From assembly GCA_050950285.1 (NCBI GenBank), contig JBMNHG010000002.1, positions 248,296 through 312,295 on the forward strand: a stretch of 64,000 bases of DNA, given 5' to 3'. This stretch comes from Kiritimatiellia bacterium. Its GTDB lineage: Bacteria > Verrucomicrobiota > Kiritimatiellia > RFP12 > JBMNHG01. Position 1 is the stretch's first letter. Each line of letters starts with the position of its first letter. The notes beneath the pieces were generated by a model. That model was given only the letters and a program-made list of their open reading frames with translations, had not been told where the DNA came from and did not search any database. Of the stretch, positions 5,105-48,941 are shown one piece after another. Made by a program: the position numbers and the translations under genes.

Positions 5105-5974
5105 ATGCTGACGAATCGACTCCCCTTCCGCGCCGCCTTTGCCGCATTCGCCCTGTCCACCCTCGCCGCCTTCGCCCAGCCCATCCTGCAGGACGGCGAC
5201 ACGCTCGCGTTCCTTGGAGACTCCATCACCCAGTTCGGCAAAGACACCCCGAGCGGGTATGTCCGCCTGGTGCTGAGCGGCCTCGAAGCGAACGGCATCA
5301 AGGTCACCCCCATCTTCGCCGGCATCTCCGGCCACAAGTCGAACGACATGCTCGCGCGCGTCGACCGCGACGTGCTGGACAAAGACCCCAAGCCCGCCGT
5401 GATGACGCTGAGCTGCGGCGTGAACGACGTCTGGCATGGCGCGCGTGGCGTCGAGCTCGAGCCCTACAAGGAGAACATCACGCAGATCCTGGACAAAGCG
5501 ATCGCCGCCGGCGTGAAGCCCGTGATCCTCACCGCCACGATGATTCGCGAAGACGCCGGGAACAACGAGAACCGGAAGCTCGCCGCCTACAACGACTTCC
5601 TCCGCGAACTCGCCGCCGAGCGCGACCTCCCGCTCGCCGACCTGAACGCGGACATGCAGGCCGCCATCGCCGCCGCCAAAGAATCCGGCGCCGCCCGCGA
5701 CAACGGCGGCAACTACCTCACCTCCGACGGCGTGCACATGGCCGCTCCGGGCAACCGCCTGATGGCCGTCGGCGTCCTTCGCGCCCTCGGCCTGGACGAC
5801 GGGCAAATCGAAAAGGCCAAGGAGGCGTGGCTCGACATCCCGAACGCCGTCCGCATGAACCTCGGGCCGCTGCTGACCCTCCGCGAATACGATGCCGTGG
5901 CGGTCAAGGCCGCCGCCGAAGGCAAGACCGTCCAGCAATTCCTCACCGACCTCGTGCAGGACGCGGTGAAGTAG
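5105..5974 (+). CDS. Secreted SGNH/GDSL hydrolase
   Basis: Signal peptide (MLTNRLPFRAAFAAFALSTLAAFA) followed by the GDSIT block, then the SGNH GxND and DGVH motifs. It is the C-terminal 290 aa of the long ORF 2969..5974; the rest of that ORF is antisense to other genes. Confidence 0.8.
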   Translation: MLTNRLPFRAAFAAFALSTLAAFAQPILQDGDTLAFLGDSITQFGKDTPSGYVRLVLSGLEANGIKVTPIFAGISGHKSNDMLARVDRDVLDKDPKPAVMTLSCGVNDVWHGARGVELEPYKENITQILDKAIAAGVKPVILTATMIREDAGNNENRKLAAYNDFLRELAAERDLPLADLNADMQAAIAAAKESGAARDNGGNYLTSDGVHMAAPGNRLMAVGVLRALGLDDGQIEKAKEAWLDIPNAVRMNLGPLLTLREYDAVAVKAAAEGKTVQQFLTDLVQDAVK

Positions 5975-35058: not shown

Positions 35059-37698
35059 TCAGTATCGTGGCCTGCCACGGGGAGGTTGACGTGAAGAAGG
35101 CACATCCCAATTGCGGCACTTCCTGCCGTCGGCATCGAAAAAACGGATGCGATGCAGGTTCGTGTCCAGAAACTTCAGCCGGAGGGAAAACCGCCGGCCT
35201 GCGCCGCATTCGCCGCCAATCGCTGGCAATGGGATCCGGACTTTATAGGTTGGCTTCCTGCAAAACTGGTAATCGTTCAGATCCATTCGCGCTGCCAATG
35301 AGGTCATGTCCGACTCTGCAATGCGGGTCCCGTTCAAGTCAAGTACCTCGACACGCGGGAACATGCCTGAAAGTCGAGCTTGCGAAAGCGCATTGTTGAC
35401 GCTGAAGAGCAGTGAACGTGAATCCTCGTCATGTGCAATGTTCCAAACCACCAGTCCGTTCTTGAAATGGAGCGACGGCGTGGCGACCGGATGGAACGAG
35501 GACAAGGAGAAATCCGTTCCGGAAACGGAGCGGAAGCGCAGCCTGTTGGGGATGTGATGGAAGTTGCAGTTGGCAGGGATGGGGCACCGAATGCCATGCC
35601 GCGCGTCCTCGAAGGAAAAAAGGCCAAGCGGGAATCCATCCAAGTCAACCTCGACAAAATCATCCGCAGGTTCATCCCCCGGCGGGCAATCGATCGAGAA
35701 ATCAATGACATTGTACCGACGGAGGATGTCGGGCCTGATGAACCGGAAGATTTCGTTCCGGGACACTTGCGGCGTGATGATCTGGTTGACGATGTAGCGA
35801 TCGTCTTCGACAATCGTCGAAAGATTGTCTTGGGAGAATCTCGTGCCATTCCATGGGGAGTCTGGCGATAGAAACGCCTTGTCGACGACAACCAGTGGGG
35901 TTGGCCAGACCATTTGCAGCAAATCGATGCCTTCGAGCCGGGATTTCTCATCGTCCGCATTGACTTTCGCACATATTTTTCGCGAAAGGTCCGGGAACGT
36001 ACCCTCCCAGGCGAAAACAAAGAAGTTTTTGTTTCGGGCAAGCTGCAGCATTTCACGCGAGGTGATTTCTCGATCGTGCATCGGGAAAACCGCGAGAACA
36101 GGCGGTTCGGGAAGGTTGTCGATATATTGGACCGAGGGCAGTCTGTCGATCGGCTCGAACCGGTGCAGGCCCGCACGGGCGGGGGTATGGGTGTCCGGCA
36201 GGCAGACTGATTCCACCCACACCGAGGCGAAAGCCAAGACAGGAATCGCCAGGGAGGCGAATCCCCGCAACTGCCTGTTGCGGACGCGACGGACAGAATC
36301 GAGCCATGAATCGAGTCCTCGTGCCGCCGCTACGACCATGAACAGCAGGACAAAGAACGAGAATCTCGATACAACGCGGAAGCCCCATAGCGCATGGCAT
36401 TGCCGATAGAGAGTCCAGTATATCCGGTTTTGAGCGACCGTGCCGATCGATCCGACGCAGAAACTGGGGCCAAACGAAAAAACCATGGCAAATAGGGATG
36501 CGCATCCCAGCCCCTTGAAAAAACAATCGTTCATGTCGCATCCGCGAACATCGAAGACAAAGACAAAGGCGACCGCCGCCGCGCACGCAATGTAGACGGA
36601 ACATACGAATGCGTTGATGCCAAAGGGCGTTTCCCCCGCGACATTTGCAGATACGCCTTGAACCAGAAACGCACACAAGGCCACGAGCAGGGTCCACAGG
36701 ATTACGTTCTGGGCCACGAATCGCTTGCCCGATCCGCGAACGGATGCGACGTGTGAACGAATCAACTCCCACGATGCCAGCAGGAAGACCGCGAGGGTGG
36801 GATATGCGCATGCTTCGTTTTGGATCGTCTTGTCGAATGGCGGCCATTTTACCCGATAGGGCGGCACGATATAGCTGGCTGGTTCCAGCACATGCCGTTT
36901 GACTTCCCCGATTTTCCGGACGAGCATGTTGCTGTCAAGGACCCTCGCATAGGGCCAGAGGAAATACCCTGCCAGAAGGATTCCCAGTACGCCTGCAACC
37001 GCGAGCGGGAGCCAGAACTTCCCGAACGATGGAAGTAATTCCTTCCAGGATTTGCGGAACAAGGGAATAACGATGAATGGCAGGAGGAACAACAGGAATA
37101 CCGCATGGTACAGCTCGGACATTGCCTGCAGCCACAGCGACAGGCAGCACGACACCGCATGGCCAATGCTTGGCCGCTTGAAGTAGCGAACCAGAAACAG
37201 CAGGAAGAGCATCACGCCAAAATTCAACTGCATGTTGAATTCGACGATATAGCGCAACTTGTACGGCAGGATCGTAAAGATTGCCGCCAACGTGAAACTC
37301 GCAATGCGCCCGACTCCCAACTCCTTCAGCAGAAGCCACATGCATGTTCCAGACAAGGCCCAGAACACGAGGAAGCAAATATTGTACGAGAGAATTGGGC
37401 CCGCATGGAAGACTCCCGCCAGGAAGGCGGCAAGGAAGGCGGGCGGATAATGCAACCCTTCGAAATAGAATCCCGAAGGATAGGGATAGAACATGTTAGT
37501 ATTGCCGTCAACCGGCAGAAGACGCCCGTGAAGGAGTTCCCGGGCCGTAAAATCCAGGCGCCAGGCATGCAATGGAGGATCCCAGTGGGCAAAGAGGCTG
37601 TCCCTGAAAGTCATGCACCACGGCCACGTCGCAAGGACAATGATGGCCGTCAATTCCAGAGTGACCAGAAGAAAAGGCAATAGGCGTTTCTTCTCCAT
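35059..37698 (-). CDS. 879-aa polytopic membrane protein (possible GT-C-like glycosyltransferase) with large C-terminal soluble domain; low-GC gene
   Basis: More than 12 hydrophobic helices in the first ~500 aa, then a ~370-aa hydrophilic domain. The base composition is clearly AT-richer than the flanks. Confidence 0.5.
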   Translation of the reverse strand: MEKKRLLPFLLVTLELTAIIVLATWPWCMTFRDSLFAHWDPPLHAWRLDFTARELLHGRLLPVDGNTNMFYPYPSGFYFEGLHYPPAFLAAFLAGVFHAGPILSYNICFLVFWALSGTCMWLLLKELGVGRIASFTLAAIFTILPYKLRYIVEFNMQLNFGVMLFLLFLVRYFKRPSIGHAVSCCLSLWLQAMSELYHAVFLLFLLPFIVIPLFRKSWKELLPSFGKFWLPLAVAGVLGILLAGYFLWPYARVLDSNMLVRKIGEVKRHVLEPASYIVPPYRVKWPPFDKTIQNEACAYPTLAVFLLASWELIRSHVASVRGSGKRFVAQNVILWTLLVALCAFLVQGVSANVAGETPFGINAFVCSVYIACAAAVAFVFVFDVRGCDMNDCFFKGLGCASLFAMVFSFGPSFCVGSIGTVAQNRIYWTLYRQCHALWGFRVVSRFSFFVLLFMVVAAARGLDSWLDSVRRVRNRQLRGFASLAIPVLAFASVWVESVCLPDTHTPARAGLHRFEPIDRLPSVQYIDNLPEPPVLAVFPMHDREITSREMLQLARNKNFFVFAWEGTFPDLSRKICAKVNADDEKSRLEGIDLLQMVWPTPLVVVDKAFLSPDSPWNGTRFSQDNLSTIVEDDRYIVNQIITPQVSRNEIFRFIRPDILRRYNVIDFSIDCPPGDEPADDFVEVDLDGFPLGLFSFEDARHGIRCPIPANCNFHHIPNRLRFRSVSGTDFSLSSFHPVATPSLHFKNGLVVWNIAHDEDSRSLLFSVNNALSQARLSGMFPRVEVLDLNGTRIAESDMTSLAARMDLNDYQFCRKPTYKVRIPLPAIGGECGAGRRFSLRLKFLDTNLHRIRFFDADGRKCRNWDVPSSRQPPRGRPRY

Positions 37699-37794
37699 GG
37701 GATTCTCTCCGTCAATTATTCCATACCGGCCATAATTTAGATAATAGGATTACTCTCCGCAAGTCTTTTTGTCGATCGATCGGCCGGCGACACT

Positions 37795-37850
37795 CGGCTG
37801 GCGACAGGGGGCGTCAAGGGTCGGGACGAGCGCCTGCTCGCCCGCTTGCG
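37795..37850. repeat. Second copy of the GC-rich promoter-region element seen at 10497-10570
   Basis: cggctggcgacagggggcgtcaagggtcgggacgagcgcctgctcg shares the 15-mer, the 20-mer and the gagcgcctgctcg block with the 10.5 kb copy, in rearranged orientation. Confidence 0.5.
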
Positions 37851-37958
37851 GCTTGCAGCCCTGAAAGGGCGGGATCGTCCGGGCCTTGGGCCCTTGTGCT
37901 GCGACGGGACGGGAGCATGGGCGTCCCCGCCCCCGCATCCCTGCTCGCGCCAAAGGGT

Positions 37959-37967
37959 GTGGTGAGG
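37959..37967. repeat. Target-site duplication (left), GTGGTGAGG
   Basis: An identical 9-mer directly abuts both inverted-repeat termini. Confidence 0.7.
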
Positions 37968-37992
37968 GGGCGCATCTCCGTTTTGCTACCGG

Positions 37993-39249
37993 CTACGCTG
38001 GGACTGCTGCCTGGGCGCAGCAGTGGTGGAGCTCCCCGTTGACGTACCATATGTACGCCTTCAGGAATGACTCGAGCCCGACTGCGGACCAGAACTGGCC
38101 GCACCGCTTGAAGCGGTTCTGCAACTGCGAACAAAGCGATTCGACCGCGCCGCTTCCGATGGGGCGCCCCAGCCTGCGCTGCCTGAGGTAGTCCATGTGG
38201 TCCTTGTGCTTCATGAAATATTCCGTCTCGCGTTGCACGGCCTTCGCGTCCCAGCATCCATCGCCTTCGTGCGCCTTGAGGATATCGAGTAGCGTCTTCC
38301 CCCCGTACCGCTTGAGCTTCCTGCAACGCTCCGAAAGCCATGCCTTTCGCGCGGGCTCGTCGTCCGGGAAGAGCGCCGCGGCGAGCGCGCCGAGATGCTC
38401 GGTGGCGTGGTAGTAGTCCAGCGTCCCTTCGGCGATGGTGGCGAACCTGTCCTCGAAGATGTTCCAGAGGTAGGTGCCGCCGTCCATGACGATGTAGACG
38501 AACTTCGCCTGCATCATCCCCATCCGCCGCGCCTCGAATTCGACCTTCCGGCCGAAGTCGACCGGATCCGTGCCGGCCGGCATGCAGACTGCGTGCTTGG
38601 TGACAAGCACGCGCCTTCCCCCGCTTGTCTCCGCGGCGTGGGCGAGCTTGAAGATTGTCGCCGACTTCATCTCGCGCCATTCCACGCGCTCGGCGGCTCT
38701 TGGGTTGCGCTTCCCCCATCCCGCCCCGCGGTGCCGGGCGAACCAGCCGTCCATCATGATCACCAGCGTGTCCTCGCTCCCCGCCGCCTCCTCGCAGAGC
38801 CGGGGAAGCTTCCCTTCCTCGCAGCGCCCGGCGATGTCCCTGACGACGTCCATGACCTTGTCGTCGCTGACGGGGCACCCCCATTCCCTGCAGAGCTTCG
38901 AGGCTTTCTCGAACGATCCCGTCTCCATGGCCGTCGCCGCGATCCTCATCTCGAACGCGGGGGAGACGCAGCCGCGCCTGCCGCCGAAAAAGCGCAGGCG
39001 CATCGGCGTCTCGTACCGACCGGACGACCGGCAGAGCCCGTTCTTCACTTTCAGTTCAACCGGCCCGAACCCGGTCGCGACCCTCATGCCGATCGTCCTG
39101 GTCTTGACGAGCGGCTTCCCGTCGCTTCCCTCGGAGGGGGTGCTCTCCGCGAGCCTCTGCAGGTAGTCTTCGTACTCCCTGCGGGCCAGTTCCATGTGTT
39201 TGCGCTGGATTGCCTTTTCGGCTTCGATCAGGTTTTTGCAGGTTTCCAT
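37993..39249 (-). CDS. Transposase, ISKra4-family-like
   Basis: 418 aa with a characteristic ..LDYYHATEHLGA.. region and an RNaseH-like DDE core. Lies inside the IR-bounded element. Confidence 0.7.
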   Translation of the reverse strand: METCKNLIEAEKAIQRKHMELARREYEDYLQRLAESTPSEGSDGKPLVKTRTIGMRVATGFGPVELKVKNGLCRSSGRYETPMRLRFFGGRRGCVSPAFEMRIAATAMETGSFEKASKLCREWGCPVSDDKVMDVVRDIAGRCEEGKLPRLCEEAAGSEDTLVIMMDGWFARHRGAGWGKRNPRAAERVEWREMKSATIFKLAHAAETSGGRRVLVTKHAVCMPAGTDPVDFGRKVEFEARRMGMMQAKFVYIVMDGGTYLWNIFEDRFATIAEGTLDYYHATEHLGALAAALFPDDEPARKAWLSERCRKLKRYGGKTLLDILKAHEGDGCWDAKAVQRETEYFMKHKDHMDYLRQRRLGRPIGSGAVESLCSQLQNRFKRCGQFWSAVGLESFLKAYIWYVNGELHHCCAQAAVPA

Positions 39250-39259
39250 TGTCTTTCCT

Positions 39260-39315
39260 TCCTTTCGCGCTTGATACTATAGCATTCGAATGCTATAGCA
39301 TCAAGCGCGAAAGGA
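39260..39315. repeat. 56-bp near-perfect palindrome between transposase and accessory ORF
   Basis: tcctttcgcgcttgatactatagcattc|gaatgctatagcatcaagcgcgaaagga, with a single mismatch (a39276/c39299). The right arm contains the AAGGAG Shine-Dalgarno (39311-39316) of the accessory ORF. Confidence 0.7.
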
Positions 39316-39323
39316 GAAACCAG

Positions 39324-39620
39324 ATGGAAAAAGACACCTCAGGCGATGAAGAGAAGATTCGTGCCATCAAAGAGCAGATCGTGGCTCTCGGGCCCATGCG
39401 CCCCGGACGGCTCAGCGTGCAATACCAAAAGCCCAAGGAGAAGGCCGGGCCGTTCTACCAGATCAGCTACACGATCCAGAAGCGAAGCCGCTCGGACTAT
39501 GTACGCGAAGCCGATCTGGAACGTGTGAAGGCAGAACTCGAAAACTACCAGACGTTCAAGCGCCTTTGCGAAGAACTGGTTCTGGCCTCGCTGGCACTGG
39601 CAAAGTCGCGACAACGCTAG
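39324..39620 (+). CDS. IS-borne accessory ORF (99 aa), unknown function
   Basis: Good SD 8 nt upstream. Charged, coiled-coil-like protein (MEKDTSGDEEKIRAIKEQIVALGP...). Inside the IS boundaries. Confidence 0.45.
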   Translation: MEKDTSGDEEKIRAIKEQIVALGPMRPGRLSVQYQKPKEKAGPFYQISYTIQKRSRSDYVREADLERVKAELENYQTFKRLCEELVLASLALAKSRQR

Positions 39621-39683
39621 CCCCTCAAAACCTGCCCCAGTCTTCCCGATGGACGAGGTGGGGAGCAAAACGGAGATGCGCCC

Positions 39684-39692
39684 GTGGTGAGG
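39684..39692. repeat. Target-site duplication (right), GTGGTGAGG
   Basis: Identical to the 9-mer at 37959-37967. Confidence 0.7.
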
Positions 39693-39800
39693 TTTTGTGC
39701 TTGACGCCTTTCCACCTCCTTCGCATCATGGCGGCATGGATGGGGGTCGGCTCGTCCCGCCGCCCCCCGGCATGCGGCAACGGTCTTTGCGGGAGTCTCC

Positions 39801-41693
39801 ATGGCGGGTTGTTTCCGAAAGTTGCATACGCTCCGCTCCGCGCGGCTCGCCGCGGTGTCGGCCGGCGCCGGGCTCTCCCCCGGCGGCACGAACACCCTCC
39901 GCCTGCTCCGCGGTTGCTTTTCCGTCAGCCCGCCGCCGCTCGACGGGGCGGACGCCGCGCGGCTTGCCGAGGCGGTCCGGGCCAAGCCCGCCTGTTCCGC
40001 CGCCCTGTGCGGCCTGCTGTCCGGGCGCCGCGAAGGCTGGCTGGCCGAGGACGTCCGGGCGCGGCATCTGCTGGACTCCGGGAAGGCCTCCGAGGCCGCC
40101 GCCGCGTGGGAGGCCATGCTCCGCCGCCGCCGCGGCCCGCCCGACCGCATCGCCTTCGCGCGCTGCGAGGCGCTGGCCGCCTGGAAGCCGGGGAAGGGCA
40201 TCGAGGCGCTGGAGGAGTGGCTGGAGCGCTACAAGGACTCGCCGCTGCGCGAGCGCGCCGCCGCCTGCCACGCCCTGCTGCCGGCCCGCCATGGCGACCC
40301 GGCCGAGGCGGCATCCCGCCTCGGGGCCTTCCTCGGGGAATACCCCGGCAGCCGCTTCGCGCCCGAGGCCCGGCAGGCGCTGGCCAGGGCGCGCGGCGCA
40401 TCGGACCGGCTGGAACAGCTCCGGGCGGCGCAGGCCGCCAAGGAGGAGAGGCGCCGGCGCGACCCGGCGTCGGCCGACCTCGAACGCGCCGAGTCGCTCC
40501 TCTCCCAGGGACGCCACGCCGACGCCGAAAAGGCCTTCCTGTCCTTCCGCGACCGCCGCCGCCATCCGCTGTGGGGGCGCGCCTGGCATGGCCTCGGCAA
40601 AGCCCGCCACGCCCGGGGCGACACGCAGGGCGCTCTCGCCGCCTGGGACGACCTCTGGCGGCGCTCGCTGGCCGACACCAACGTCCTGTGCGCCGCCCGG
40701 GCCCGCCGCGCGGCGGGCGACGCCTGGCTCGAGGATCTCGGCGAGCCGGCCCGCGCCCTGAAGGCCTACGACGAAGCCGCGTCCCGCACCGACTTTTCCG
40801 ACCCCGCCTTCGACCTCAACCGCGGGCTCGCCCTGCTGATGCTCGGGCGCGCCCCGGAGGCCGCGGCCCTCTTCACCCGCCGCCGCGACGCGTCCGCCGG
40901 CGACAAGGCCGAGTTCCTGCGCTGGGACCGCCTCGCGAAGGAGTGCGCCGCCGGACGCCTGGCGCCGCCCCCGCGCGGCCTGCTCCCCGACCAGCGCCGC
41001 GCCCGTACCGACCTGGCGATGGCCGACGCCCTCCTCGCGGCCGGCGAGCCGGCCCGCGCCCTGAGGCTCTACCGCCGCGCGTCCGCCCCCCTGGCGGGCC
41101 ACGAGGGGGCCGACCGGTGCGACCTGGGCATGGCGCTCGCCCTGGCCGCCCTCGGCCGGCCGAAGGAGGCGCTCGCCCTCTACGGGCGTTTCACGGGCGA
41201 ACACGGGCGCAGCCCGCTGGCCGCCGGAGCCCTGCTCCGCGCCGGCACGCTCTGCGCATTGCCCCGCGTGAACGACTTCAAAGGCGCCTGCCAGTGGTTC
41301 GCCCGGGTCGTCGAAAACCACCCCGGCACGCGCGAGGCCGAGGCGGCGGAGTTCTATGCCGCCAAAAGGCTCCACGACCCCTTCGACGACGACCAGCGAA
41401 ACGACCGTCCCCGATTCCCGCATGGCAAGCCCGTCCATCCCGACATCACGCTCTCCCGACATCACGCTCCATTGGGAGGCGGGGAACCCGCTCGCCCTGC
41501 TCGGGGGAACCACGGTTTACACGAACAAAATCGAGATCGACGCCGGGGAGGTCGACTGGCCCCTGGATTACGCCGTCATCCCGCGTCATTCGGCCATTTC
41601 CTTCGCCATCGCCGCCGAGGGCCAGGCCGCCGAGGGCGGCAAGGCGGTGGACATCGTCCACGGGCGCGTCGTCGACGTGGACCTCGACGTTGA
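39801..41693 (+). CDS. TPR-repeat protein; probably the N-terminal part of a single TPR-trunk-toxin gene interrupted by a 16-bp duplication
   Basis: TPR-like helical repeats throughout. The last real residues (..KPVHPDITL) match the N-terminus of module 2 (KPVNPHITLHW), and the tail after nt 41455 is out-of-frame read-through. Removing one 16-bp repeat unit fuses this frame to 41422..43458. Confidence 0.6.
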   Translation: MAGCFRKLHTLRSARLAAVSAGAGLSPGGTNTLRLLRGCFSVSPPPLDGADAARLAEAVRAKPACSAALCGLLSGRREGWLAEDVRARHLLDSGKASEAAAAWEAMLRRRRGPPDRIAFARCEALAAWKPGKGIEALEEWLERYKDSPLRERAAACHALLPARHGDPAEAASRLGAFLGEYPGSRFAPEARQALARARGASDRLEQLRAAQAAKEERRRRDPASADLERAESLLSQGRHADAEKAFLSFRDRRRHPLWGRAWHGLGKARHARGDTQGALAAWDDLWRRSLADTNVLCAARARRAAGDAWLEDLGEPARALKAYDEAASRTDFSDPAFDLNRGLALLMLGRAPEAAALFTRRRDASAGDKAEFLRWDRLAKECAAGRLAPPPRGLLPDQRRARTDLAMADALLAAGEPARALRLYRRASAPLAGHEGADRCDLGMALALAALGRPKEALALYGRFTGEHGRSPLAAGALLRAGTLCALPRVNDFKGACQWFARVVENHPGTREAEAAEFYAAKRLHDPFDDDQRNDRPRFPHGKPVHPDITLSRHHAPLGGGEPARPARGNHGLHEQNRDRRRGGRLAPGLRRHPASFGHFLRHRRRGPGRRGRQGGGHRPRARRRRGPRR

Positions 41694-43458
41694 CGCCAAC
41701 CACGACGGCAAAATTGATGACGCCGACGAGCCCTTGGAGGTGGACCCCGGCGGCTATGTGTGCGTCGGAACCAACAACCTGACGCCGGTCACGCTCAAGT
41801 TGGAGCCCGTCGGCCTGCCCGGCAAACTGACCCTCTCGGCGACGATGGGTGGGGACCGAATCCGCATCTGGAAAGACGCCGGGCGCGCGACCGAGGTGAT
41901 ATTGACCAATGGCTGCGCCCAGGTGGCTCCCGGCACGCTCTACGTCGAGGGGGTCACCAACAGCGCCGCCCTCCGCGACGTGGAACTCCGCCTCGAATAC
42001 GACGAGAACCCGGAGGGCCAGAATAACCGCCTCTTCAAGTGCGAGGACAGGGTGAAGCTGACGGCCGTGAAGGTGGACTTGGATATCGACTCGGACAACA
42101 ACGGAGCCATCGAAGAAGCAGACGAGGCCCAAGAACTTACCGAACCGGGCAAGTTGATCTATCTGAACCATGATGACGACAACAAGAACGACATAGAGGA
42201 CAAGGCCGAGAACACTGCAATTGTCACTGATGAAGATGACCTCCAACCAATCAAGCTTGCATTTTCACCAAACATCGCTGGCGGAAAGATAATCCTTGCT
42301 GCTCCAAGTGGTGGGTCTCGGATTCAAGTTTGGGGAAACTCCACAAAAGGTGTTGCGAGTGAGAAAGTTGACCTGCCGAAGACGTGGACAATAGGCACTG
42401 ACGCTGTCCCTGCAACACTCTATGTCGAGGGCATCGACCCCGGTGCTGCTCAATTGAAATTGGCTTACGAGGTTAACTCGGTCGAAGTTTGCAAGGACGA
42501 GATCAAGTTGGGCATCGTCAAAATTGAGTTCAAGGAACGGGGCGATACAAAATACGGTTATGATAACGGGACCGTTGACAACAACCCTGTTCCCAAATCG
42601 GTTGACACTCCCCCACAGAAGTATGACTGGGTAAACGTTGACAGAGACAACAAGACGACAGATGTGGACGTAGAGATTACTCCGGCGTCGTATGCCAAGT
42701 ACGTTAATTTTATTAGCAGCGATGACGCAAAAACCACATGCAATCCTGTCGCAGCAACTGCAAATCCGCAGAAATTGACCATAACCGGCACAGCCTCGGG
42801 GACATCCCATGTCCAGACGCGACTTGGAACCACAACAGGTGCTAAAGGCACTCGGTTGAATGTGGCCTGTTACAAGCTGGCAGCCCTTAATGTCAATTTC
42901 TATAAGGTAAGTGCCACGGGGCTTGCGCCTGATGGTACCACGGCGGAACAATTCGAAAGTGGCGCGAATGCGTTCCTCAAGCGGGGTGTCAGTGAACTAT
43001 CACTGACCGACAACGGCACCACAATAACTAACTACGATGACAACGCAAATTCTAAACTAGATATCGATGCAACGGCGGGGGATGGCGGAAGTGAATGGGT
43101 CAAGGTGACAGCGGCACTAGGGGCTCCTGTTGGGATGAAACTGCTTCATGTAAAGGCCTTGCGCGTTAACATCGGGGGAACATGGGTCAACGCAACAGGC
43201 TTACGCTATGGTGATTGGACGCTGGTTTCTGACGAGTCAACGAGCAAAGTCAGAACTGTCGCCCATGAGATGCTTCACAAGCTAGGACTGAAAGATACAG
43301 GCCCCAGTGGGAGCAACACTGCAAACATCATGTACTATATGAGCAATGGCACAAAGTACTTTGTGGGGTATTTCAAAGTGGAAGGCGTTCAGACTGGGTC
43401 TGGCACGTCTTACACCCCAAAACAACACGAGCTACAGTGGGAAATGATTTATCGGTGA
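41422..43458 (+). CDS. Polymorphic-toxin-like module 1: conserved trunk + C-terminal HExxH (zincin-like) region
   Basis: Trunk ..GKAVDIVHGRVVDVDLDVDANHDGKIDDADEPLEVDPGG...LTLSATMGGDRIRIWKDAGR..EVILTNGCAQVAPGTLYVEGVTNSAALRDVELRLEYDENP. Reiterated ~100-aa modules. C-terminal ..VAHEMLHKLGL.. (43264-43278). Confidence 0.65.
   Translation: MASPSIPTSRSPDITLHWEAGNPLALLGGTTVYTNKIEIDAGEVDWPLDYAVIPRHSAISFAIAAEGQAAEGGKAVDIVHGRVVDVDLDVDANHDGKIDDADEPLEVDPGGYVCVGTNNLTPVTLKLEPVGLPGKLTLSATMGGDRIRIWKDAGRATEVILTNGCAQVAPGTLYVEGVTNSAALRDVELRLEYDENPEGQNNRLFKCEDRVKLTAVKVDLDIDSDNNGAIEEADEAQELTEPGKLIYLNHDDDNKNDIEDKAENTAIVTDEDDLQPIKLAFSPNIAGGKIILAAPSGGSRIQVWGNSTKGVASEKVDLPKTWTIGTDAVPATLYVEGIDPGAAQLKLAYEVNSVEVCKDEIKLGIVKIEFKERGDTKYGYDNGTVDNNPVPKSVDTPPQKYDWVNVDRDNKTTDVDVEITPASYAKYVNFISSDDAKTTCNPVAATANPQKLTITGTASGTSHVQTRLGTTTGAKGTRLNVACYKLAALNVNFYKVSATGLAPDGTTAEQFESGANAFLKRGVSELSLTDNGTTITNYDDNANSKLDIDATAGDGGSEWVKVTAALGAPVGMKLLHVKALRVNIGGTWVNATGLRYGDWTLVSDESTSKVRTVAHEMLHKLGLKDTGPSGSNTANIMYYMSNGTKYFVGYFKVEGVQTGSGTSYTPKQHELQWEMIYR
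41439..41470 (+). repeat. 16-bp tandem duplication (cccgacatcacgctcY x2) at the TPR/trunk junction
   Basis: Units at 41439-41454 and 41455-41470, with 15/16 identity. Deleting one unit gives an uninterrupted ORF 39801..43458. Confidence 0.7.
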
Positions 43459-44531: not shown

Positions 44532-46253
44532 ATGAACATCTGGCACAAAGAATCTGTAAAACCCGTGAATCCGCACATCACGCTCCACTGGGCGGGGGTG
44601 CGCGAACTGTGCCTTCTGCACGGGGACGGGACGTTGTTCCCGAACGGCGGGCAGATCGACTCGCGCGCCGTTCCCTCCTGGCCCCTCCGCTTCCGCGTCG
44701 GGCCGCTCGCGCCGACGACGGAGTTCGTGGTGCGCCTTTTCGGCGAAGCCGACAACGTGACGGGCGAGAAGGCGGTGGACATCGTCCACGGGCGCGTCGT
44801 CGACGTGGACCTCGACGTTGACGCCAACCACGACGGCAAAATTGATGACGCCGACGAGCCTTTGGAGGTGGACCCCGGCGGACTGGCCTGCGTCTGCACG
44901 AACAAACTGACCCCGATCATGCTCACGCTTCAGCCCGCCGGACTGACCGGCAGGCTGACCCTCTCGGCAACGATGGGAGGGGACCGAATCCGCATCTGGA
45001 AAGACGCCGGGCGCATGATCGAGGTGGTATTGACCAATGGCTGCGCCCAGGTGGCTCCCGGCACGCTCTACGTCGAGGGGGTCACCAACAGCGCCGCCCT
45101 CCGCGATGTGGAGCTGCGCCTCGAATACGACGAGAACCCGCCGAACCAAAACAACCCCCTTTTCAAGTGCGAGGACAGGGTGAAGCTGACGGCCGTGAAA
45201 ATAGATTTTGTCACTCCCGCCGGTGATCCGGTAAATGCCGCCGTGCAGTCGGGCGACGGGCAAAACGAATTCACCTACTCGACAGCCACTCCCGGCGTTC
45301 TGACGATGAACCTGAAGGCGCACGTCACACCGAGCGGTATCGCCAACCAGATCAAGGGCCTATGCCTGTTTACGGTTGATATGATCGCCGGTTCCACCTT
45401 GGCTTGGGGCTCGTCGAATCCTAACGGCAAGCCGACAGCGAACGGTGATGACCTGTTGGCGACGGTCACGTTCACCGGTTTGCCCGCGAACAATTCCGAC
45501 TTCGGGGCCAAGAAGGCCGCTATCCACTTCAACGCCAGCAAGCAGGATGAAGCGAACTACGAAGTATTCTTTCCCCGAGATGTGGCGAACAATCCTGGTG
45601 GTTCTGATCCAAATTGGTTCTACTACTGGGGTCAGGTTTATGTGAATGCGAACGTTCAATATGTGGCCGCTGCGGCGGCCGGACGCGTACCTGCCATGAC
45701 AGGCTGGACGTACAACTCTGTACCAAGCAAAACTCGCATTGAAATCGGTAGCGGACATCCCGCAAAATACAAATCCTATGGCATCGGAGAGGAAGCGTCG
45801 GGCATTGATCGCTACATAATGACGGGAATACATGAGGAGAAGCATGTGGCACAGATTGCTGCCGCAGATGCTCTTCTGCCTACCAGCGGTGCCGATTCCT
45901 TTCGCTTCGGTTGGTCATGGAATCAATCCACTCATAATCATTGGACAAAGGGGCCTGATGGGCAATGGGGTGTTGCCGGAGTTGATGATGACGGGAATGG
46001 TGTAGTTGATGACGCAGCTGTGGCACCACCCTTTGAACCTGGGAACGGTGACGACATCAGCCTCGACCGCGCAACATGGCCGTGGTGGCCAAATACGTGG
46101 ACACTGCCCGGCGGAGTTTACGCCACCATCCATCCCATTGAAGGCGAGGCCGTCAAGGCTGCGGATGACGCAATGAATGAAAACGACTATGCGCCCCAAG
46201 ATTGGGGCAAGCCCGGCAAGAACCACAAGACGGTAAACAAGTGGGATGATTGA
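44532..46253 (+). CDS. Polymorphic-toxin-like module 2: same trunk, unrelated C-terminal region with HEEKH
   Basis: Nucleotides 44773-44883 differ from 41640-41750 by 1 nt. The trunk diverges after ..FKCEDRVKLTAVKIDF. C-terminal ..GIHEEKHVAQ.. (45831-45845). Begins only 10 aa before the trunk homology (MNIWHKESVKPVNPHITLHW). Confidence 0.65.
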   Translation: MNIWHKESVKPVNPHITLHWAGVRELCLLHGDGTLFPNGGQIDSRAVPSWPLRFRVGPLAPTTEFVVRLFGEADNVTGEKAVDIVHGRVVDVDLDVDANHDGKIDDADEPLEVDPGGLACVCTNKLTPIMLTLQPAGLTGRLTLSATMGGDRIRIWKDAGRMIEVVLTNGCAQVAPGTLYVEGVTNSAALRDVELRLEYDENPPNQNNPLFKCEDRVKLTAVKIDFVTPAGDPVNAAVQSGDGQNEFTYSTATPGVLTMNLKAHVTPSGIANQIKGLCLFTVDMIAGSTLAWGSSNPNGKPTANGDDLLATVTFTGLPANNSDFGAKKAAIHFNASKQDEANYEVFFPRDVANNPGGSDPNWFYYWGQVYVNANVQYVAAAAAGRVPAMTGWTYNSVPSKTRIEIGSGHPAKYKSYGIGEEASGIDRYIMTGIHEEKHVAQIAAADALLPTSGADSFRFGWSWNQSTHNHWTKGPDGQWGVAGVDDDGNGVVDDAAVAPPFEPGNGDDISLDRATWPWWPNTWTLPGGVYATIHPIEGEAVKAADDAMNENDYAPQDWGKPGKNHKTVNKWDD

Positions 46254-47186: not shown

Positions 47187-48941
47187 ATGGAATCAAGCCT
47201 CTGCATGAATGGCGCGAATGAACGGACGGCTTGGGAATATGCCGTGTGTAGCGGCCAAGACAACCACGACGACGAGCCGCCGGAGGAGGATCCCGGCGGC
47301 TACGCCTGCGTCTGCACGAACAAATTGACGCCGCTCAATCTGAAGGTGCAACCAACCGACCTGCCCGGCAAGGTCAGACTCTCGGCGACGGGCGGCCAGC
47401 GCATCAGAGTCTGGGAGAACGCCGGCCGCACCGGCGAGGTGGTATTGACCAATGGCTGCGCCCAAGTGGCGCCCGGCACGCTCTACGTCGAGGGGGTCAC
47501 CAACAGCGCCGCCCTCCGCGACGTGGAGCTGCGCCTCGAATACGACGAGAACCCGCCGGGCCAGAGCAACCCCCTCTTCAAGTGCGAGGACAGGGTGCGG
47601 CTGGTCGTCATAAAAGTGGACTTAGACATTTGGAACGGGGGAGCCGATTTGGACAACGGTGAGGCTGCCGGCCCCCAGGGGGCACAGGTCCCGGACGCCG
47701 ACGAGGAATCCGTCGGAGCATACATCCTCGTCAACTGGGATGATGACGACGGTGACGGCAAAATCAATGGCACCGGAAGTGGCTGGATATCCTTTCCAGT
47801 GCCAGATCTCGACGAATCAACGGCCATTACCGACGAGGATAATCTAGCGCAGTTGAAACTCAATCTTACGCCGTTACTTGATCTTGGAACGGTTGAACTG
47901 GAAGTGAGTGGTACCGATGCGGGCAAGATCAAGCTCTGGACCGAGTCAACCAAAGGAACGGTGGTCACACTCACATCCAACAAGAAGACATGGAACCTAT
48001 CAAACCCGACGCAGAAGAGCGAGTTTCAGAACTTAATGGCCAACAGCCTGTGGATCGAGGGAGTTGACGCGGGATCGGGTGAACGGGCTGCAACCTTTAC
48101 ATTGTGTTTCAAGGACAGTGGTGGAACTGAAATCTGCAATGACGTTAACAAGGCAACGTTGGTGATGCTGAATCTTGCGAACGTCGCTGGTAGAGAGGTT
48201 GACAATGATGCTCTTGCGGAGAGAGGGCATACGGCAGTAGTCGGTCGCTATGATGGCAGCTGCACCAAGGCCGATTTGCTCAATGCCGCGCACTATACAC
48301 TCTATGAGGCAGATGGGGGTGGAGATTGGGCCGGCACAGAACCAGGACCACGTGAAGCCCTTCTTACTCATGTTACGGCCAGACCAGGCCGCGAGTTTTT
48401 TGGTTCATTGTCACCCTTCTTGACGTCGTACTACAACAGCTCGTCAATGCCTAACACAGCGCAGGGTTACAGAACTCGTTTGAAGATATTGCTGGTGGCC
48501 AGGCGCTTGATTGATAACACCGCCAGCATAGGATATACAAAGTTCAACGCTGTCCTACCCGGAAACTGGAACGGCAATTTGGGCACGATTACAGATCTCC
48601 GATGCGACGGGTTCGTCGAAGTCTGCTATGAGTGGTCGGGCGTCAATTCGTGGGGAAGGATCGCAGGAGGTGGAGCCCGGTACAGCATCCTCGTTGCAGG
48701 GAATCAAGATGACCATAATGAATGGGTATGGGGAGACGTCCCGCAAGATGGAGCGAGTGACTTCTGGGCATGGCTGATGCCGATAACACAGATCGGATAT
48801 GCCGACACCTATATTGACAGCCATTATCCCCCATACACCAACGGTGACTTCGACTATACGGCGAACAATTTTGAAGGGACTTTCTGGGAGAGTGCCTTTT
48901 CCTCTCAACAACTCGTCATGCCAACGCTTTCAAATCCGTGA
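47187..48941 (+). CDS. Polymorphic-toxin-like module 3: 5'-truncated trunk + third unrelated C-terminal region
   Basis: Trunk homology starts abruptly at ..DNHDDEPPEEDPGGYACVCTNKLTP (the ~80 aa found in modules 1/2 are missing). ..VVLTNGCAQVAPGTLYVEGVTNSAALRDVELRLEYDENPP is identical to copy 2 at the protein level. The C-terminal half is unique with no HExxH. Confidence 0.6.
   Translation: MESSLCMNGANERTAWEYAVCSGQDNHDDEPPEEDPGGYACVCTNKLTPLNLKVQPTDLPGKVRLSATGGQRIRVWENAGRTGEVVLTNGCAQVAPGTLYVEGVTNSAALRDVELRLEYDENPPGQSNPLFKCEDRVRLVVIKVDLDIWNGGADLDNGEAAGPQGAQVPDADEESVGAYILVNWDDDDGDGKINGTGSGWISFPVPDLDESTAITDEDNLAQLKLNLTPLLDLGTVELEVSGTDAGKIKLWTESTKGTVVTLTSNKKTWNLSNPTQKSEFQNLMANSLWIEGVDAGSGERAATFTLCFKDSGGTEICNDVNKATLVMLNLANVAGREVDNDALAERGHTAVVGRYDGSCTKADLLNAAHYTLYEADGGGDWAGTEPGPREALLTHVTARPGREFFGSLSPFLTSYYNSSSMPNTAQGYRTRLKILLVARRLIDNTASIGYTKFNAVLPGNWNGNLGTITDLRCDGFVEVCYEWSGVNSWGRIAGGGARYSILVAGNQDDHNEWVWGDVPQDGASDFWAWLMPITQIGYADTYIDSHYPPYTNGDFDYTANNFEGTFWESAFSSQQLVMPTLSNP

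Follow-up and report, generated by a model that had tools for sequence, protein, structure and literature searches.

The prokaryotic Mutator-like transposases form a superfamily that comprises the IS256, ISH6, ISLre2/TnGBS and ISKra4/ISAzba1/ISMich2 groups together with integrative and conjugative elements of Mycoplasma (Guerillot et al. 2014, PMC3942029). Its elements end in inverted repeats (IRs) of 18-39 bp with a terminal C, generate direct repeats of 8-9 bp, form circles whose ends are separated by a spacer of 6-10 bp, and encode transposases with a C/D(2)H motif and with a helical insert of 99-138 residues between the second aspartate and the glutamate of the catalytic triad (PMC3942029). 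Here we describe an insertion sequence (IS) that appears to be a divergent relative of the ISKra4 group. It occupies positions 37968-39683 of a 64,000-nucleotide stretch of contig JBMNHG010000002.1 of a Kiritimatiellia bacterium (the whole stretch is hereafter called the window), and it carries a transposase gene and a second gene for a small DUF6788 protein.

In addition to these structural traits, some elements of the superfamily prefer particular target sites. Insertion 13-17 bp upstream of the -35 boxes of sigma-A promoters has been reported for thirteen ISs of the ISKra4 group, as for TnGBS and ISLre2, and elements with near-perfect IRs can have the promoter on either side (PMC3942029). 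In the ISKra4 members classed as promoter-targeting, a sigma-A promoter is predicted 13-17 bp from the junction of IR and genome in more than 20% of sites (PMC3942029). How Mutator-like transposases find promoters is unexplained, and contact with the RNA polymerase initiation complex has been proposed in the literature. We consider it highly probable that the window element is an intact, recently active, two-gene IS in a Kiritimatiellia host, that its landing was biased toward promoters, and that it spared the core promoter of the neighbouring gene.

Boundaries and mobility of the element

The window holds a real and intact IS of 1716 bp, as the original prediction had observed from the DNA, and this IS has been mobile recently. 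The perfect 20-bp IRs that it described are present, with GGGCGCATCTCCGTTTTGCT at 37968-37987 and its reverse complement at 39664-39683, and the match continues to 23 nt with one mismatch (left IR, IRL, 37968-37990, plus strand; right IR, IRR, 39661-39683, minus strand). This 20-mer occurs twice in 64 kb when up to three mismatches are allowed, compared with 0.03 occurrences expected, and none of 100 shuffled sequences contained two. The ends read 5'-GGGCGC...GCGCCC-3' and thereby include the terminal C, and the terminal motif GGGCGCATC is kept across the clade of related elements. The predicted target-site duplication was likewise found, since the 9-mer GTGGTGAGG adjoins both ends of the IS (left copy, 37959-37967; right copy, 39684-39692). 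The bases outside the two 9-mers are unlike (t/c before, g/t after), and the duplication is therefore exactly 9 bp.

The gene to the left of the IS (35059-37698, minus strand) encodes an 879-residue protein, and an identical protein is encoded on twelve contigs, which allowed occupied and empty versions of the locus to be compared. The empty site expected from the window, ...CAAAGGGTGTGGTGAGGTTTTGTGCT..., is present exactly as predicted in six metagenome assemblies from six different samples (L021, L022, L023, L024, L025 and L027). These alleles read ...CAAAGGGTGTGGTGAGGTTTTGTGCTTGACG..., with one 9-mer and no IS. In three others (L020, L026 and L028) the left junction is identical to the occupied junction of the window. 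The insertion is thus polymorphic among otherwise near-identical genomes, which indicates that it is recent. Occupied samples include SRR31065934 and JGI 3300060803, and empty ones SRR31066037 and SRR31061296.

Further copies were located among metagenome contigs by exact-protein look-ups of the transposase and the small protein. Copies with 0-8 differences over 1716 bp, bounded by the same IR pair, reside at seven distinct sites, the window site included, as the original prediction would have it for a mobile element. Matching 9-mers flank the IS on both sides at five of these sites (GTGGTGAGG, AAAAGAAAC, ACAGGAATG, GCCGGCATC and CCTGCGTCG, the last pair being pieced together from two separate contigs). 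A scan of metagenome contigs with the 20-bp IR returned only two loci and no new sites or junctions; at the first (L109) the match falls on an end of a related IS, and the second (L110) lies in an unclear context. In three contigs (L003, L005 and L012, the last of 54 kb) the left and right 9-mers come from different insertion sites, which reflects either assembler mis-joins across the repeat or recombination between IS copies.

The element is circularly permuted in one contig of 1785 bp (L007; Joint Genome Institute, JGI, 3300002898), both ends of which fall inside the internal palindrome described below. Contig positions 1307-1355 read ...AGCAAAACGGAGATGCGCCC TTCGCGGCG GGGCGCATCTCCGTTTTGCT..., which is IRR, 9 bp and IRL in succession, and the spacer has the same length as the target duplication. 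Such a junction would be produced either by a transposon circle (copy-out) or by a head-to-tail tandem pair, and the two look alike.

A truncated copy was found in assembly L002 (JGI sample 3300053716), where positions 5780-5830 join window position 39447 to 39692 and window positions 39448-39691 are lost. The deletion has cost the copy its right IR, one 9-mer and the 3' part of the DUF6788 gene, and the promoter at 39701 is still in place. The copy is one-ended and should be immobile. L002 was also considered as a second copy of the window allele and was rejected as such, as it lacks window positions 39448-39691 and differs in the structure of the downstream gene.

Relationship to the ISKra4 group

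The larger gene of the IS (37993-39249, minus strand) encodes a 418-residue protein that is assigned as a Mutator-like DDE transposase of the ISKra4 type on the basis of family models, a homologue alignment and an AlphaFold2 (AF2) model. The NCBIfam ISKra4 model (NF033572) matches it with 155.2 bits over model positions 23-420 of 422, which makes this the top family with three times the next score. The ISLre2 model (NF033529) reaches 48 bits against a cut-off of 200, the ISH6 model reaches 34 bits, and no IS256 family model is among the NCBIfam matches. The only Pfam match is UPF0236, at the N-terminus. The ISKra4-like identity put forward in the original prediction, which had singled out the sequence LDYYHATEHL (residues 277-286), thus stands in that the best family model is matched over its full length, but the score falls short of the curated cut-off. 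The identical protein in the NCBI annotation, from a Kiritimatiellia metagenome-assembled genome (MAG), is labelled 'hypothetical protein'. A scan of GTDB representative genomes gave no 100% match for the host species.

An alignment of 21 homologues points to D167, D256 and E370 as candidate catalytic residues. No sequence departs from D256 or E370, between which there are 113 residues, and at least 90% of the sequences have D167. The D(2)H motif is represented by D278-Y-Y-H281, which is invariant in the same alignment. In the AF2 model (predicted local distance difference test score, pLDDT, 86.5) the interval between D256 and E370 contains only helices (279-359) except for a single short strand immediately preceding the D(2)H motif. 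The best match among solved structures is the transposase of ISCth4 (E = 2e-10), which aligns over its full length in 424 columns. Two complexes of ISCth4, an IS256-family enzyme (PDB 6xg8, 6xgx), are the only significant solved-structure matches of the model, with E values of 2e-10 and 3e-9.

Of the described groups, the ISKra4 group (p-MULT 4; PMC3942029) resembles the window element most closely. It provides the best family model. Shared with it are a DDE triad interrupted by a long helical insert, near-perfect IRs with a terminal C, and direct repeats of 9 bp, which were seen at five sites of the window IS and in four relatives; a D(2)H motif is present too, slightly outside the published spacing. 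Some insertions in both cases lie at a fixed short distance upstream of the -35 boxes of sigma-70 promoters on either side of the element, and some published members bear an extra open reading frame (ORF) of unknown function. The window element differs in that its transposase scores below the family cut-off and is about 24-26% identical to annotated ISKra4 transposases, in that its accessory gene encodes DUF6788 and is conserved across the whole subclade, and in that its relatives peak at 27 nt rather than 13-17 nt from the -35 box. Furthermore, its host phylum, Kiritimatiellota (of the Planctomycetes-Verrucomicrobia-Chlamydiae, PVC, group), is not in the list of PMC3942029.

Two other groups are more distant. 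TnGBS/ISLre2 (p-MULT 3) elements likewise have a Mutator-like DDE transposase and 8-9-bp repeats, form circles, for which the window IS has one candidate junction, and insert 15-17 bp upstream of the -35 boxes of sigma-A promoters, and the N-terminal region of the window transposase matches UPF0236. In contrast, the window transposase earns only 48 of the 200 bits on the ISLre2 model, and most TnGBS/ISLre2 elements insert in one orientation owing to asymmetric IRs, whereas the window IRs are perfect and the relatives have promoters on either side. The IS256 family is similar in the predicted fold of the transposase, for which ISCth4 is the best structure match, and IS256 is known to transpose via circles with a short spacer between the abutted ends (PMC3942029). 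Its insertion is reported to be random, however (PMC3942029), and no IS256 model matched the window transposase. The element can be filed within the prokaryotic Mutator-like DDE superfamily as a divergent member that stands nearest to the ISKra4 group, which makes it a new, unnamed IS of a known type and not a new kind of element.

The DUF6788 gene and the divergent promoter region

IS256 elements carry a single gene. The second gene of the window IS (39324-39620, plus strand) matches Pfam DUF6788 (PF20586) with 47.8 bits against a gathering score of 27.2, over residues 9-94. The original prediction had reported a divergent ORF of 99 codons; the gene is indeed divergent from the transposase gene, but its product has 98 residues. 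A HMMER profile search returned 850 representative DUF6788 clusters, nearly all of them stand-alone proteins of about 100 residues. Neither a paper that mentions DUF6788 nor, for DUF4338 in combination with 'transposase', anything relevant to IS elements was recovered by literature searches.

At 26 of 80 genome loci that encode relatives of the transposase, a DUF6788 gene is located divergently upstream of the transposase gene. In all 26 the transposase is at least 38% identical to that of the window (range 38-54%), and the elements are 1.7-1.8 kb long with GGGCGCATC termini, 9-bp duplications being visible in four. The MAGs concerned are labelled mostly Kiritimatiellia and Lentisphaerae, with others labelled Acidobacteriia, Nitrospirae, Armatimonadota, Opitutia, Smithella and Clostridia, although binning can mislabel short contigs. 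Mean identity to the window proteins is 46.9% for DUF6788 and 44.9% for the transposase (r = 0.61). The similar identity of the two proteins indicates long co-inheritance under selection.

A different arrangement was observed in more distant relatives of 2.17-2.2 kb (for example L055 2147-2995 and L069 2149-2997), whose transposases are 31-39% identical to that of the window and come mostly from Verrucomicrobiae. These elements have GGGCGCATC termini and no DUF6788 gene, and carry instead a co-directional ORF of 282 residues that matches Pfam DruA (PF14236) with 82-87 bits. DruA is a defence-system domain that has been described as GNAT-like (PMC10853773).

The two genes of the window IS diverge from a 74-bp intergenic region that contains a near-perfect palindrome of 28+28 nt (39260-39315), whose arms are 96% complementary with one mismatch. 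Two back-to-back consensus matches overlap it. On the minus strand, TTGATG (39304-39299) and TATAGT (39281-39276) are separated by 17 nt and face the transposase gene; on the plus strand, TTGATA (39271-39276) and TATAGC (39294-39299), also 17 nt apart, face the DUF6788 gene. Both promoters have a TG-extended -10 box and are followed by near-identical leaders that end in an AAGGA ribosome-binding site. Most relatives have a palindrome at the same position, with the core TAGCA-N6-TGCTA. In a search of 37600-39900 against Rfam, the palindrome triggered matches to microRNA-hairpin models only, far below thresholds. A reading of the palindrome as purely a repressor operator was not retained, since its half-sites fit two back-to-back extended -10 promoters equally well.

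The DUF6788 protein may have a regulatory or cofactor role. Tentatively, it might be an IS-encoded cofactor that either binds the palindrome, and so balances its own expression against that of the transposase, or tethers the transposition complex to promoter-bound RNA polymerase, but we give this proposal a low probability. On the tethering model, the two insertion registers described below (about 16-17 nt and 27 nt, one helical turn apart) would arise because the complex docks on a single face of the DNA upstream of the promoter. In the AF2 model of the protein (pLDDT 86), long helices at the N- and C-terminus enclose three strands, a predicted helical hairpin with a three-stranded sheet.

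It is also conceivable, if doubtful, that DUF6788 is a passenger with no role in transposition and that the palindrome represents merely two overlapping promoters. Various genes whose function is unknown occur in other ISKra4-type elements (PMC3942029), the distant relatives have a DruA-like ORF where DUF6788 would be, extended -10 boxes of the form TGnTAnnnT account for the TGCTA half-sites, and fold searches produced no DNA-binding homologue. Set against this, the gene has kept its position and orientation in 26 elements from MAGs of several labelled phyla with transposases of 38-54% identity, it diverges at the rate of the transposase, and its product is small and basic (isoelectric point 9.4). 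Furthermore, in L054 and L056 both arms of the palindrome have changed together (ACGGACC/GGTCCGT) and no -10 motif is kept. This covariation hints at an additional symmetric binding site.

Insertion next to promoters and the downstream locus

The IS is inserted within a 377-bp divergent intergenic region between the gene for the 879-residue protein and a TPR-repeat gene whose 5' part is a 630-codon ORF (39801-41693, plus strand). The original prediction placed the insertion about 110 bp upstream of this gene; the end of the IS is 117 nt from the ATG at 39801, and 108 nt separate them when counted after the duplicated 9-mer. A promoter scan of 37600-39900 returned two sigma-70-like sites, one inside the IS and one at 39701-39729. 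The latter (TTGACG, 17 nt, CATCAT; plus strand) is part of the target and not of the IS, whose last base lies 17 nt before the start of the -35 box.

Both hexamers of this promoter are intact and identical in the empty-site alleles, which indicates that the core promoter was spared and not disrupted. From about -44 outward, counted from the predicted transcription start of the TPR gene (about 39736), the upstream DNA has been replaced by the IS. The earlier suggestion that the IS might supply or disrupt the promoter of this gene therefore has to be narrowed: the core promoter at 39701-39729 has survived, and what lies beyond about -44 has been exchanged.

These findings bear on whether the insertion rewires the downstream gene, either through disruption of its native promoter or through transcription supplied by the IS from an outward promoter or by read-through from DUF6788. 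Any UP element or activator site beyond about -44 would have been moved by 1.7 kb, the DUF6788 gene is oriented toward the TPR gene, and no terminator-like site was found on the plus strand between the DUF6788 stop (39620) and the end of the IS. However, the core hexamers are the same as those of the empty-site alleles, the promoter scan detected no outward-facing promoter in the right IR, and PMC3942029 suggests that elements of this family choose DNA upstream of promoters precisely because this limits the cost to the host. The downstream gene of the window strain is frameshifted in any case. On balance, we regard such rewiring as unlikely.

To judge whether the position next to a promoter is itself meaningful, the flanks of the IS copies can be compared with a background taken from the whole window minus the IS, where 124 kb of strand contain 8 promoter-like sites. 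Among 12 flanks of the window IS, strict promoter matches lie at 17 nt (flank A-R), 16 nt (F-R) and 25 nt (E-R), and looser ones at 11 nt in G-L and 27 nt in E-L. For at least two strict matches in the pre-specified range of 13-17 nt among 12 flanks, P is about 7e-6. A strict promoter at 16-17 nt is present at two of the seven sites (29%), which is above the published 20% criterion.

The related elements behave in a similar manner, with a different distance. Their ends were set by the clade-conserved terminus GATGCGCCC, which gave a paired, non-redundant set of 68 flanks. Of these, 16 have TTG at offset 27, compared with 1.3 expected (P about 1e-11, corrected for 45 offsets), and hexamers with at least five of six matches to TTGACA occur there nine times, compared with 0.5 expected; a good -10 box follows many of them after 16-18 nt. 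In one close relative, whose 23-bp IR is the same and whose DUF6788 protein is 87% identical, four flanks have a -35 box at offset 27 and two have one at 12-13. It is thus shown statistically that the clade inserts at the upstream edge of promoters, with a main register of 27 nt and a minor register about a helical turn closer. The window copy lies in the closer register, and its position is probably not random.

A chance landing in an intergenic region, with TTGACG-17-CATCAT lying 17 nt away by coincidence and no promoter-directed choice, is improbable on these data. It draws on the small sample of seven sites, on promoter calls that are consensus matches, and on the lack of a strict promoter-like site near the junction at sites B and D, and at site C apart from one loose match. 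Yet promoter-like sites are rare in the background and two of 12 flanks have one at 16-17 nt, the relatives show a single sharp peak at offset 27, and the same behaviour has been published for the ISKra4 group and for TnGBS/ISLre2 (PMC3942029). That an assembly error joined a collapsed repeat to the wrong locus is scarcely credible, for although the mismatched flanks of L003, L005 and L012 show that assemblers do mis-join across this IS, the duplication measures exactly 9 bp, the empty site occurs as predicted, and three independent assemblies (L020, L026 and L028) share the left junction.

We picture the working of this IS as follows. By analogy with the family, the transposase would bind the 20-23-bp terminal repeats with their GGGCGCATC terminus, and a copy would be excised as a circle with its two ends abutted across 9 bp, for which one candidate junction was seen. 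The 9-bp duplication shows that integration proceeds by cuts staggered by 9 bp. Expression of both IS genes would start from the compact palindromic region with its two back-to-back promoters. The copy in the window landed 17 nt upstream of the -35 box of the TPR gene, such that the core promoter stays with its gene, and the co-oriented DUF6788 gene could add read-through transcription to it.

Several observations weigh against this interpretation. As to the family, the 155 bits of the transposase compare with a curated ISKra4 cut-off of 205, the annotated ISKra4 or ISLre2 transposase genes that tblastn retrieved from plasmids are only 23-28% identical to it, and the D(2)H motif follows D256 by 22 residues where the published range is 11-19. 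As to mobility, the circle-type junction is an assembly-level feature of a single short contig, and the exact right junction is known from the window alone, the sole other assembly that covers it (L002) having the 244-bp deletion. As to targeting, all promoters are matches to a sigma-70 consensus whose use in Kiritimatiellia is assumed, only two of the seven sites of the window IS pass the strict promoter rule, and nothing promoter-like adjoins sites B and D, of which D lies in G+C-rich sequence beside beta-helix-repeat ORFs. The main distance of the clade is 27 nt and not the 17 nt of the window copy. Lastly, fold searches with DUF6788 gave no specific match.

With these points taken into account, the locus marks a recently active, multi-copy mobile element that makes strains polymorphic beside a variable locus for surface or secreted proteins. 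The family is poorly studied, and as a natural example of it this element is unusually complete, in that both alleles, several duplications, a circle-type junction and a clade-wide -35 signal could all be obtained from public data. It is this completeness, together with the conserved DUF6788 partner and the sharp 27-nt register of the clade, that goes beyond an ordinary IS. A subclade with such a register and a conserved small accessory protein offers a concrete system in which to test the idea of contact with RNA polymerase.

The downstream gene had been described as toxin-like, a label for which we found no support. Searches against Pfam and NCBIfam (E <= 0.01) matched only TPR families in the 630-codon ORF, and nothing in the overlapping ORF of 700 codons that follows it. 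The two ORFs are parts of a potential 1213-codon ORF (39801-43458) that is split by a perfect tandem duplication of 16 bp (TCCCGACATCACGCTC twice, at 41438-41469). The empty-site strains L021 and L023 have one copy. This duplication could reflect a pseudogene, an on/off switch or an assembly error. An exact-protein look-up of the 630-residue product returned no record.

The same gene varies among strains in other ways. Window positions 39856-41364 constitute an extra in-frame module of 1509 bp (503 codons) that holds the whole TPR region and is also present in L002, which has a further version of the gene and 480 extra bases after window position 39855. The empty-site strains L021, L022 and L023 do not have this module, and their 18-residue leader is fused straight to the C-terminal part. 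In the small number of contigs at hand, those with the module are also those with the IS. Regardless of the IS, the locus is a hot spot of structural variation.

Three paralogous segments (41369-42069, 44762-45197 and 47252-47597) are 80-91% identical to one another and to parts of L002 and L021. Their similarity suggests a family of repeated modules in adjacent large genes, which may drive rearrangements between strains. Near the C-terminus of the 700-codon ORF (43380-43410), the HExxH-type motif VAHEMLHKLGL, which has no family model match, points to a possible metalloprotease-like domain.

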